From NCBI RefSeq assembly GCF_003790525.1, contig NZ_CP033635.1: a stretch of 64,000 nt of DNA. The stretch is one strand, 5' to 3'. Shown here piece after piece: positions 15,772-60,768 of this stretch; the first letter of the stretch is position 1; every line of letters starts with the position of its first letter. The notes under the pieces were generated by a model. That model was not told where the DNA came from, did no database searches, and saw nothing but the letters and a program-made list of their open reading frames with translations. Both the position numbers and the translations under genes were made by a program. Source of the stretch: Escherichia coli. Its GTDB lineage: Bacteria > Pseudomonadota > Gammaproteobacteria > Enterobacterales > Enterobacteriaceae.

Positions 15772-17436
15772 TCAGGCTACCTTTTCGACAGAAACGTCGG
15801 CATCAGGGCGGGTCAGCGTCATCACCGACGCCAGTTTATTCAGGGTCTTGCCCAGGGTTTGCGGAATGGCGGTGGCGGCAACAAAGCGATCCGGGCGCAT
15901 CACCACCAGCGAAGCATTGTGTTGCGCGAACCAGCTACGCAGGCGACCTTGCGTATCGCCCACGCGTAGTACGCCGTCGTGGTTATCCTGTGCGGTATGA
16001 ATTTGCACTTCCGGCACCACCTGAATGAAGCGTGTGCCCAACGCGCGCCACTGCTGGATTTGCTCGTCGCTCATCCCCCACAGTGGATTGCATCCCCAGC
16101 CAATTACCGCGAAGTTCGCGCCGATCGCGTTATCGAGCAGCGTCACGTCGCCGTTTTCCAGCGTGACTTTCGGCTGAATAAACATCTTGCCGACCGGAGA
16201 GTGCTTCGCTTCGCCCTCACGCACCAGCGCACCGCCGTAATATTGCGGCATCGGCTTGAAGCGCATTTCGAGGAAGTAGCGTTTTACTGGCGGCAGATAA
16301 TTCAACAGCCAGGAAACGCCGTCACGTAACGTACCCTGCCAGCGTTTCGGCGGAGCCAGCACGTTGCCCGCCGTCACGGACAGGTCAATCATCGCTTTGG
16401 CGTGATCGCGACGTTCTTGTTGATAGGTATCGAGCAGCGCATCGCGGGCTTTCCCCTGGATAACCAACGCCAGTTTCCATGCGAGGTTAAAGGCGTCGCG
16501 CATACCACTGTTATAGCCCTGCCCCTGCCACACCGGCATGATGTGCGCGGCATCGCCCGCCAGCAGTACGCGATCAATACGAAAACGTTGCGCCAGTCGC
16601 GCGTTGTGGGTGTAGACACGCTGGCGAATCAATTCAACATTGTCCGGATTAGGCAGCACTTTGCTTAACAGCTTGCGCATATTTTGCGGCTCACGCAGCT
16701 GTTCTTCGGTTTCTCCCGGCATCACCATAAATTCAAAGCGACGTACCGCATGAGGCAGCGCGGCAGAAACATACGGGCGCACCGGATCACAACACAAATA
16801 GATATGCGGCGTACTTAACGGATCGTTGGCGATATCTACCACAATCCACTGATTTGGCGCAGTTTTACCTTCAAACGGCACATTCAGGGTGCGACGGACA
16901 AAACTTGCCCCACCATCACAGGCCACCAGCCACTGGGCTTTGACCGTTTCCCGCTGCCCTTCTTCCGTTTTTAGGTGCAAGGTCACTTCGTCATCTTGCT
17001 GGCTGAAGGCCTCCAGCTCGCGGGAAAACAGGCAGCGCACATTCGGAAAACGCGACAATCCTTCCAGCATCACCGCATCGACCTGAGGCTGAATAAAGGC
17101 GTTACGGCGCGGCCAGCCAAATTCATCGGTCATTGGCTGAATATCAGCAAAACAGCGACCTTTTGGGGTGAGAAAACGCATCGCGTGCCACGGCGTAGTG
17201 TGCGGCAGAACATTATCGACCAGGCCAACCGACTGCATGGTGCGCAGCGCCTCGTCATCAATACCAATCGCACGCGGGTAGTCGATCAACTTATCGAGTT
17301 TCTCCACCACCAGCACGTCAATGCCCATCTGGCCGAGATAGTTCGCCATCATCAGCCCGACCGGACCGGCACCAGCGATCGCCACCTGAACGCTATGGTT
17401 AACAGCAGGCTGGATGTCAGGGTGTTGTATTGCCAT
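15772..17436 (-). CDS. mhpA: 3-(3-hydroxyphenyl)propionate hydroxylase (FAD-dependent monooxygenase)
   Basis: 554 aa; N-terminal FAD-binding motif [15 protein letters not shown]. Confidence 0.9.
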
Positions 17437-17577
17437 TTCAGTACCTCACGACTCGGACAAAATGCCGTTGCGCGCACAGTACAGCGCAACTTGTTTTGTT
17501 AAAAACATGTAAATGATTTTTTATTGTGCGCTCAGTATAGGAAGGGTGTTTTCGGCTACAATCAAAACATGCCCGAA

Positions 17578-17594
17578 TGTGCACCAGGTGCACA
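17578..17594. promoter_or_regulatory. 17-bp perfect palindrome, candidate MhpR operator in divergent mhpR/mhpA control region
   Basis: TGTGCACC-A-GGTGCACA between mhpA and mhpR starts. Confidence 0.55.
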
Positions 17595-17626
17595 ACGTTG
17601 TTTTAACTATATAAATGTCAATTAAT

Positions 17627-18460
17627 ATGCAGAACAATGAGCAGACGGAATACAAAACCGTGCGCGGCTTAACCCGCGGTCTAATGTTATTAAATATGTT
17701 AAATAAACTTGACGGCGGTGCCAGCGTCGGGCTGCTGGCGGAACTCAGCGGCCTGCATCGCACCACTGTGCGGCGACTGCTGGAGACGCTGCAGGAAGAG
17801 GGATATGTCCGGCGTAGTCCCTCCGATGATAGTTTCCGTTTGACCATCAAAGTGCGGCAATTAAGCGAAGGATTTCGTGACGAACAGTGGATTTCTGCAC
17901 TGGCTGCCCCACTGCTGGGCGATCTGTTGCGCGAAGTGGTATGGCCGACAGATGTGTCCACGCTGGATGTTGATGCAATGGTGGTACGCGAAACCACCCA
18001 TCGTTTCAGCCGATTATCCTTTCACCGGGCAATGGTCGGGCGACGGTTACCGCTTCTGAAAACCGCCTCGGGCCTGACCTGGCTGGCCTTTTGCCCGGAA
18101 CAAGAACGCAAGGAATTAATCGAGATGTTAGCCTCCCGCCCCGGTGATGACTATCAACTGGCACGAGAACCGTTAAAGCTGGAAGCCATTCTGGCGCGCG
18201 CGCGCAAAGAGGGGTACGGACAGAACTACCGCGGCTGGGATCAGGAGGAGAAGATCGCCTCTATCGCCGTACCGCTGCGCAGTGAACAACGGGTGATTGG
18301 CTGTCTGAATCTGGTGTATATGGCGAGCGCAATGACCATCGAACAGGCAGCGGAAAAGCATCTTCCGGCGCTGCAACGGGTGGCAAAACAGATCGAAGAA
18401 GGGGTTGAATCGCAGGCTATTCTGGTAGCGGGAAGGCGAAGCGGCGTGCATTTACGCTGA
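17627..18460 (+). CDS. mhpR: IclR-family transcriptional activator of mhp operon
   Basis: ORF 17615-18460; start at MQNNEQTEYKTVRGL gives 277 aa; N-terminal wHTH and C-terminal IclR effector domain pattern. Confidence 0.88.
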   Translation: MQNNEQTEYKTVRGLTRGLMLLNMLNKLDGGASVGLLAELSGLHRTTVRRLLETLQEEGYVRRSPSDDSFRLTIKVRQLSEGFRDEQWISALAAPLLGDLLREVVWPTDVSTLDVDAMVVRETTHRFSRLSFHRAMVGRRLPLLKTASGLTWLAFCPEQERKELIEMLASRPGDDYQLAREPLKLEAILARARKEGYGQNYRGWDQEEKIASIAVPLRSEQRVIGCLNLVYMASAMTIEQAAEKHLPALQRVAKQIEEGVESQAILVAGRRSGVHLR

Positions 18461-19703: not shown

Positions 19704-22816
<3,113 letters not shown>

Positions 22817-58548: not shown

Positions 58549-60237
58549 TTGCAATTTGACTACATCATTATTGGTGCCGGCTCAGCCGGCAACGTCCTCG
58601 CTACCCGTCTGACTGAAGATCCGAACACAACCGTGCTGCTGCTTGAAGCAGGCGGCCCGGACTATCGCTTTGACTTCCGCACCCAGATGCCCGCCGCGCT
58701 GGCGTTCCCGCTACAGGGCAAACGCTACAACTGGGCCTATGAGACGGAACCCGAACCGTTTATGAACAACCGCCGCATGGAGTGCGGACGCGGCAAAGGT
58801 CTGGGCGGTTCATCGCTGATCAACGGCATGTGTTACATCCGTGGTAACGCGCTGGATCTCGATAACTGGGCGCAAGAACCCGGTCTGGAGAACTGGAGCT
58901 ACCTCGACTGTCTGCCCTACTACCGCAAGGCCGAGACTCGCGACGTGGGCGAGAACGACTACCACGGCGGCGACGGCCCGGTGAGCGTCACCACCTCCAA
59001 ACCCGGCGTCAATCCGCTGTTTGAAGCGATGATTGAAGCGGGCGTGCAGGCGGGCTACCCGCGCACGGACGATCTCAACGGCTATCAGCAAGAAGGTTTT
59101 GGCCCGATGGATCGCACCGTCACGCCGCATGGCCGTCGCGCCAGCACCGCGCGTGGCTATCTCGATCAGGCCAAATCGCGCTCTAACCTGACCATTCGTA
59201 CTCACGCCATGACCGATCACATCATTTTTGACGGCAAACGCGCGGTGGGCGTCGAGTGGCTGGAAGGCGACAGCACCATTCCGACCCGCGCGGCGGCGAA
59301 TAAAGAAGTGCTGTTATGTGCAGGCGCGATTGCTTCACCGCAGATCCTGCAACGCTCCGGCGTCGGCAACGCTGGACTGCTGGCGGAGTTTGATATTCCG
59401 CTGGTGCATGAATTACCTGGCGTCGGCGAAAATCTTCAGGATCACCTGGAGATGTATCTGCAATATGAGTGCAAAGAACCGGTTTCCCTCTACCCTGCCC
59501 TGCAGTGGTGGAATCAGCCGAAAATCGGTGCGGAGTGGCTGTTTGGCGGCACCGGCATTGGTGCCAGCAACCACTTTGAAGCAGGCGGATTTATTCGCAG
59601 CCGTGAGGAATTTGCGTGGCCGAATATTCAGTACCATTTCCTGCCAGTGGCGATTAACTATAACGGCTCGAACGCAGTGAAAGAGCACGGCTTCCAGTGC
59701 CACGTCGGATCGATGCGCTCGCCAAGCCGTGGGCATGTGCGGATTAAATCCCGCGCCCCGCACCAGCATCCAGCGATTCTGTTTAACTACATGTCGCACG
59801 AGCAGGACTGGCAGGAGTTCCGCGACGCAATTCGCATCACCCGGGAGATCATGCATCAACCGGCGCTGGATCAGTATCGTGGCCGCGAAATCAGCCCCGG
59901 TGTCGAATGCCAGACGGATGAGCAGCTCGATGAGTTTGTGCGTAATCACGCCGAAACCGCCTTCCACCCATGCGGTACGTGCAAAATGGGGTACGACGAG
60001 ATGTCCGTTGTGGATGGCGAAGGCCGCGTGCACGGGCTGGAAGGATTACGCGTAGTCGATGCGTCAATTATGCCGCAGATTATCACCGGCAATCTGAACG
60101 CCACGACGATTATGATTGGCGAGAAAATGGCGGATATGATTCGCGGGAAGGATGCGTTGCCGAGGAGCACGGCGGGATATTATGTGGCAAATGGGATGCC
60201 GGTGAGAGCGAAAAAAATGAGTCGTGATGTGAACTGA
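58549..60237 (+). CDS. betA: choline dehydrogenase (GMC oxidoreductase)
   Basis: Apparent TTG start giving (M)[20 protein letters not shown]; FAD-binding GxGxxG; GGAGG Shine-Dalgarno 7 nt upstream; C-terminal residues may differ from K-12. Confidence 0.85.
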
Positions 60238-60768
60238 CTCAGGAACCTATCAGATTGAGAGTTACCGTTCTACTATGAGGACCGAATCCTTATATAAAAC
60301 ACTGAGGTAACTCTCATGCTTCATATCCAGTATTCATGATGCTGGCTTTTTGCTGATATTTAACCCGAACATTCCTGATACAGACTATTAATTCATTTAT
60401 CTGCGGCAGATTTTATTTTCTGGATATATTATGAGTGAACAAATCAAACAGGATATCGATCTGATTGAGATTTTATTTTATCTGAAGAAAAAGGTAGATG
60501 AATACCAACAAAACTCTGGGCAGTAATAAACAGCATTCTGATAGAGAGTGCCTGTATAAAGCTGAAGTGACAATGACCGGGAAGGGAACCCGTTTTCAGG
60601 AATGGATGCCTGTCTTTTTCAATTTAAATATCCTGGCATTAGTAATGCCAGGATATTTACAGAAGAGCAGCATAACCATGACGGAACGGGGTTAAGTCAG
60701 GTTGTCCTAAACGCTATTTTCAACCTCGTATGCCTTCTTCAGGTTTATGTCCAGACTTCATATCTCTC

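Follow-up and report, generated by a model that had tools for sequence, protein, structure and literature searches.

Does the palindrome in the 190-bp spacer between the divergent genes mhpR and mhpA of E. coli serve as a regulatory site, and which of the two promoters does it serve? The whole stretch of DNA analysed (the window, 64 kb) was the tau-frm-mhp-lac-cyn-cod-prp region of E. coli. The spacer was exactly 17437–17626, between the ATG of mhpA (15772–17436, minus strand, ATG at 17436) and that of mhpR (17627–18460, plus strand, ATG at 17627), and mhpR was followed downstream by lacI and then lacZ. Both flanking genes were identified by annotation and by family models. mhpA, which heads the catabolic operon under regulation, encoded a product that passed the MhpA equivalog model of NCBIfam (NF004827, 1288 bits). 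The product of mhpR, the IclR-family activator predicted to act on the palindrome, scored 345 bits against the NCBIfam equivalog NF007341 (cut-off 269) and contained an N-terminal HTH_IclR domain (PF09339, 53.5 bits) and a C-terminal IclR_C effector domain (PF01614, 48.2 bits). The mhpR ATG at 17627 was invariant across the enterobacterial alignment and is the annotated start in K-12; a second in-frame ATG at 17615 was not conserved. The spacer was found in 4896 of 5426 complete E. coli genomes. An Rfam scan of the window gave zero matches, and a PDB sequence search returned distant IclR-family members only, a structure of MhpR itself being absent.

The initial annotation had reported a 17-bp perfect palindrome, TGTGCACC-A-GGTGCACA, in the mhpR/mhpA divergent region, 33 bp from mhpR and ~140 bp from mhpA. 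It was present at 17578–17594 as TGTGCACCAGGTGCACA, an 8+1+8 perfect inverted repeat centred on 17586 with the core GTGCAC-N3-GTGCAC, and the distances were right: 33 bp were measured from its end to the mhpR ATG and 142 bp from its start to the mhpA ATG, with 41 bp from its centre to the mhpR ATG. TGTGCACCAGGTGCACA was the sole match in the 64-kb window even when three mismatches were allowed. Four perfect palindromes (arms of at least 8 bp, gap of 0–1) were seen in the window against 2.7 ± 1.7 expected from first-order Markov simulations, so the window-wide count was not significant; the chance expectation for such a palindrome inside the 190-bp spacer was about 0.008. A bare palindrome being unremarkable by chance, the case for function rests on other evidence, namely conservation. 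The three further perfect 8+8 palindromes of the window lay at 19841–19856 (TTCGCCAGCTGGCGAA, inside lacZ), 58575–58591 (TGCCGGCTCAGCCGGCA) and 60634–60650 (TGGCATTAGTAATGCCA).

In Table 1 of a review of IclR-family motifs (PMC8222616), the E. coli MhpR operator is given as GGTGCACCTGGTGCACA and credited to Torres et al. 2003 (J Biol Chem 278:27575); this review was the single source of the operator sequence found in the literature search. The reverse complement of the palindrome in the window strain, TGTGCACCTGGTGCACA, was identical to this experimentally defined operator at 16 of 17 bases, one outermost base being different. At the orthologous position (368,453–368,469) K-12 MG1655 carried TGTGCACCAGGTGCACC (on the plus strand of the window), whose reverse complement was the published motif exactly. 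The site of the window strain thus resembled the K-12 operator of the mhpA promoter (Pa) in its locus, its flanking genes and its placement with respect to the start codons of mhpA and mhpR, and differed from it at 17594, the outermost base on the mhpR side, which was A in the window strain and C in K-12. The A made the repeat fully symmetric, and it agreed with the cross-species consensus described below (A in 57/78 sites). The spacers of the two strains differed at three more positions. At 17613 the window strain had T and K-12 had G, a change from TAGAAA to TATAAA that improved a −10-like hexamer a short way before the mhpR ATG.

Two 57-bp queries differing solely at 17594 were used to compare the alleles. 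The query with the symmetric allele was at least 99% identical to sequences in 2833 records, and the version with the K-12 allele in 1347 records. The symmetric operator thus appears to be the commoner form in E. coli and the "imperfect palindrome" of K-12 a minority allele. The MhpR operator at this locus was already known, its biology having been established in K-12 two decades ago; what is new is limited to the fully symmetric allele, a natural variant matching the cross-species consensus.

For the comparison across species, one genome per species was sampled, which gave 80 loci with MhpR orthologues of 55–99% identity. A site was scored when GTGCAC-N3-GTGCAC occurred with no more than one mismatch in 12, at most 300 bp upstream of mhpR. 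The core was found upstream of mhpR, and so together with an MhpR orthologue, in 78 of the 80 species (69 of them exact), and the genera concerned included Escherichia, Citrobacter, Kluyvera, Pluralibacter, Pseudomonas, Azotobacter, Marinobacterium, Zobellella, Nitrincola and Xanthobacter. These 78 matches fell within 24 kb of DNA upstream of mhpR, against 5 matches in the 499 kb of remaining locus DNA. The only two loci without the site were those of Vibrio cincinnatiensis and V. furnissii (L022 and L030), whose mhpR-like genes (69–74% identity) had no GTGCAC-N3-GTGCAC within 600 bp upstream and no adjoining mhpA. Where gene order was altered, the palindrome still stood ahead of mhp catabolic genes: in Azotobacter, Azomonas and Marinobacterium it preceded mhpD-F-E, and in the P. 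sagittaria / S. stutzeri / Xanthobacter group an mhpB-like gene.

Over the 78 sites, each of the 12 core positions carried 1.8–2.0 bits. The outer ±8 positions were T in 53/78 and A in 57/78, and the centre base was A in 52/78. The inner ±1 positions were mainly T/A or C/G and were non-complementary in 26/78 sites. Specific bases were conserved rather than pairing, which argues for a protein site over an RNA stem. On the mhpR side, 12–19 bp from the palindrome centre, a further conserved flank, TTGTTTTA (17598–17605), was visible: positions +12 to +14 were T, T and G in 68, 75 and 69 of the 78 sequences, and the flank was invariant in enterobacteria and read TTG(A/T)TTTA in Pseudomonas. The significance of the palindrome derives from this cross-species conservation. 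Given the conserved core and the match to the published operator, we estimate a probability of about 0.93 that the palindrome serves as operator for MhpR, the member of the IclR family that activates mhpABCDFE, the operon for breakdown of 3-(3-hydroxyphenyl)propionate.

Pa was located by phylogenetic footprinting anchored on the palindrome centre. Toward the catabolic genes, a TTG began exactly 25 bp from this centre in 73/78 species; the mirror-image position toward mhpR had it in 0/78. The −35-like hexamers included TTGTAG among the enterobacteria and, in many Pseudomonas, TTGTCC or TTGTCG. A −10-like hexamer of the pattern [TC]ATAC[TC], such as TATACT or CATACT, started 47–49 bp away, again toward the catabolic genes, in 69/78. 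In the window, the predicted −35-like hexamer of Pa was TTGTAG (17556–17561, minus strand), inside the invariant block CTACAATCAAAAC of the enterobacterial alignment, and the predicted −10-like hexamer was TATACT (17534–17539, minus strand), 47 bp from the centre, its complement AGTATA being invariant in 17 enterobacterial sequences. Transcription would then start at 17527–17528 on the minus strand (near K-12 368,519–520), 6–7 nt downstream of the −10 hexamer. A consensus sigma-70 promoter scan of 17300–17750 found none at threshold, as expected for a weak, activator-dependent promoter.

The operator centre (17586) would accordingly lie at about −58/−59 of Pa. This agrees with the −58 reportedly given for it in the Torres 2003 abstract. 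Lying in the divergent spacer upstream of the catabolic core promoter, the palindrome is, to judge from this arrangement, the upstream activator site of the catabolic promoters. The spacing from operator to promoter was shared by Escherichia, Pseudomonas and Xanthobacter, on the catabolic side only, and the operator seems to lie close to the mhpR start simply as a consequence of the two genes being divergent. Second exact copies of the core were found 3′ of mhpR at four loci from Marinobacterium species and one Pseudomonas (L041, 2671–2685; L046, 3801–3815; L055, 3823–3837; L080, 3843–3857). In all four, the downstream side carried a TTG 25 bp from the centre. In L041, L046 and L055 the extra copy separated mhpR from an mhpB-like gene further downstream, implying two putative MhpR-controlled promoters at each of these three loci.

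A weak candidate for the upstream CRP site of Pa, TGTCA-N6-ATGCA, was detected by motif scan at 17616–17631 (6/10 core positions; near K-12 368,416–431). With a Pa start at 17528 its centre, 17623.5, would be at −95.5, the position reportedly given in Torres 2003 for the Pa CRP site. A figure of −40.5 is also reportedly given in the Torres 2003 and Manso 2009 and 2011 papers. Conservation of the TGTCA arm of this candidate was limited to Escherichia, Citrobacter and some Kluyvera.

In the proposed mechanism, MhpR would bind the two GTGCAC-containing half-sites centred ~58–59 bp upstream of the mhpA transcription start, just upstream of the weak −35 (TTGTAG) and the TATACT −10. The inducers 3HPP and DHPP would strengthen this binding, with PP acting synergistically, as described in the literature. 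Bound MhpR would let cAMP-CRP occupy a weak site further upstream (the CRP dependence is likewise taken from the literature), and MhpR and cAMP-CRP would jointly recruit RNA polymerase to Pa. MhpR has been described as a 3HPP-dependent activator of Pa that is essential for CRP binding there (PMC8753852), and binding of MhpR to the K-12 allele, enhanced by 3HPP/DHPP, is reported in secondary sources. The two 7–8-bp half-sites, about one helical turn apart, would fit a dimer of helix-turn-helix domains.

MhpR is placed by the review PMC8222616 in the PcaU/PobR/PcaR/HmgR motif group of aromatic-catabolism regulators (group consensus GTNCG-N5-6-CGNAC). Like the operators of that group, the MhpR site was a ~17-bp palindrome in a divergent spacer between a regulator and catabolic genes, with an effector-responsive IclR-type protein. 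Unlike them, it had GTGCAC as its half-site, and MhpR scored 127 bits against TIGR02431 (pcaR_pcaU), under the cut-off of that model. The PcaU, PobR and HmgR operators also have an extra external direct repeat of the half-site (PMC8222616), whereas the MhpR site had no such GTGCAC repeat, just the unrelated conserved flank TTGTTTTA.

On the mhpR side, no Shine-Dalgarno sequence was recognisable before the ATG at 17627 in E. coli (17606–17629); the Kluyvera and Pseudomonas orthologues had AGGA-type sites. It is possible that the mhpR leader is very short or absent. With the operator centre only 41 bp from the ATG and no Shine-Dalgarno sequence for E. coli mhpR, the mhpR promoter (Pr) is likely to share DNA with the operator or with the flank to its right, which leaves a small chance of a secondary effect of MhpR on Pr. 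Two assignments of Pr elements, AGTATA as the −10 on the plus strand and TTGTTTTA as a −35 or extended −10, were tried and rejected, since the spacing to the start codon did not fit or the essential −11 A was missing.

Such an overlap raises the question of whether the MhpR site also governs Pr. Autoregulation is common in the IclR family, which was counted in favour, and the operator centre lay 29–57 bp from the mhpR ATG in most species, so a Pr between operator and ATG must overlap the operator. Pr is said to have been found MhpR-independent in the work of Torres in 2003 and of Manso in 2011, which was counted against autoregulation. The mirrored distance on the mhpR side held no conserved promoter element (0/78), the extra operator copies lay away from any mhpR promoter, and expression from a PmhpR::lux fusion was constitutive, with no response to 3HPP or PP, a result that its authors find consistent with Torres 2003 (PMC11237407). 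Autoregulation of Pr through this site is thus improbable. The initial annotation had proposed a dimeric IclR-type activator site controlling both promoters: the IclR-type activator operator was upheld by the match to the published operator and by the family models of MhpR, but control of both promoters was not supported, the fusion being constitutive and the promoter geometry being found on the catabolic side only. A division of labour is conceivable instead, in which the palindrome doubles as a class II CRP site of Pr, with CRP acting on Pr and MhpR on Pa. According to what is reported of Manso 2011, Pr is class II CRP-dependent. AATGTGC at 17576–17582 matched one arm of the CRP consensus. 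In the Reg-Seq preprint, a CRP activator site annotated after Manso 2011 is placed at −38 to −59 of mhpRp2, with an ArcA-like signal near −10/−20 and ArcA enrichment on the mhpRp2 promoter fragment. The geometry would fit if the ArcA-like GTCAATTAAT (17617–26) lay near the −10, which would put the CRP 22-mer at about 17575–17596, and the lack of a Shine-Dalgarno sequence in E. coli mhpR would suit transcription that starts beside the ATG. However, the palindrome (TGTGC-ACCAGG-TGCAC) matched TGTGA-N6-TCACA at 5/10 core positions (4+1, the second arm being poor), below the scan cut-off of 6 and the usual norm for CRP sites of at least 6–7 of 10, and the site was equally conserved in taxa whose flanks looked nothing like a CRP site. 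We regard a CRP site of Pr within the palindrome as unlikely, with a small chance of being right. Doubtful, and somewhat more so, is a broader scheme in which the palindrome would be a shared docking point: MhpR would activate Pa from about −58, cAMP-CRP (and possibly NtrC, with its strong in vitro SELEX peak in the spacer) would use the overlapping TGTGC/TGCACC half-sites on a near-leaderless mhpR promoter, each would affect occupancy by the other, and A or C at 17594 would tune the balance between E. coli lineages.

NtrC, the nitrogen regulator, could also be considered as the protein that binds the palindrome. A genomic SELEX peak of NtrC (88% intensity) fell in the mhpR/mhpA spacer (PMC8743547); at the resolution of the array it was ~30–40 bp away from the palindrome, whose old K-12 coordinate is about 367,650. 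Both half-sites of the NtrC box TGCACCAnnnTGGTGCA, the identical hexamers TGCACC and GGTGCA, were present in the palindrome, the only adjoining pair in the spacer. These half-sites were 1 bp apart, though, against 5 in the NtrC box (TGCACCA-N3-TGGTGCA), and the best match to that box in the region had 4–5 mismatches in 14. No sigma-54 −24/−12 motif with fewer than three mismatches was found in the region, the site travelled across species with mhpR and not with nitrogen genes, and the SELEX data are in vitro only (PMC8743547). A second NtrC peak (71%) was reported at mhpC/mhpD (about 13,935 of the window; PMC8743547), and a canonical NtrC box was absent at both peak places. An NtrC site is therefore very unlikely, and the peak in the mhpR/mhpA spacer looks like in vitro cross-recognition. 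An RNA hairpin, acting as terminator or attenuator in a transcript crossing the palindrome, was flagged by a terminator pattern scan of the plus strand, which picked out the stem and the downstream ACGTTGTTTT, and the T-rich flank was conserved. Yet the hairpin was only 7 bp (−9 kcal/mol; z = −0.75 and −0.63 against shuffles), the T-run was interrupted and began 3 nt after the stem, and the stem bases were invariant, with no compensatory changes and with the non-complementary inner positions already described; this leaves the hairpin scarcely credible. A chance palindrome without function would agree with the four repeats seen and ~2.7 expected per 64 kb, but it was refuted by the cross-species conservation, besides the identity to the published operator, and its probability is negligible.

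With the palindrome read as the MhpR operator, the accepted model of MhpR and Pa is unchanged by the points added here: the symmetric operator is both the consensus and the commoner E. coli allele, its spacing is conserved one-sidedly, and the unexplained NtrC peak obtained in vitro falls on the site. The result also confirmed that a reader of the sequence alone can pick out a real operator.

Two further repeats were noted in the mhpA-proximal part of the spacer. A direct repeat, TGTTA-N6-TGTAA, with 11-bp phasing was found at 17497–17512 in the AT-rich block of the predicted mhpA leader and was invariant in 17 enterobacterial sequences; it resembles an ArcA direct-repeat site. This AT-rich block was bracketed by an imperfect inverted repeat, TGCGCGCACAGTA (17469–17481) and TATTGTGCGCTCA (17522–17534), 85% complementary and 40 nt apart, whose arms resembled MhpR half-sites (GCGCACA, TGTGCGC) and whose left arm was not conserved in Citrobacter.
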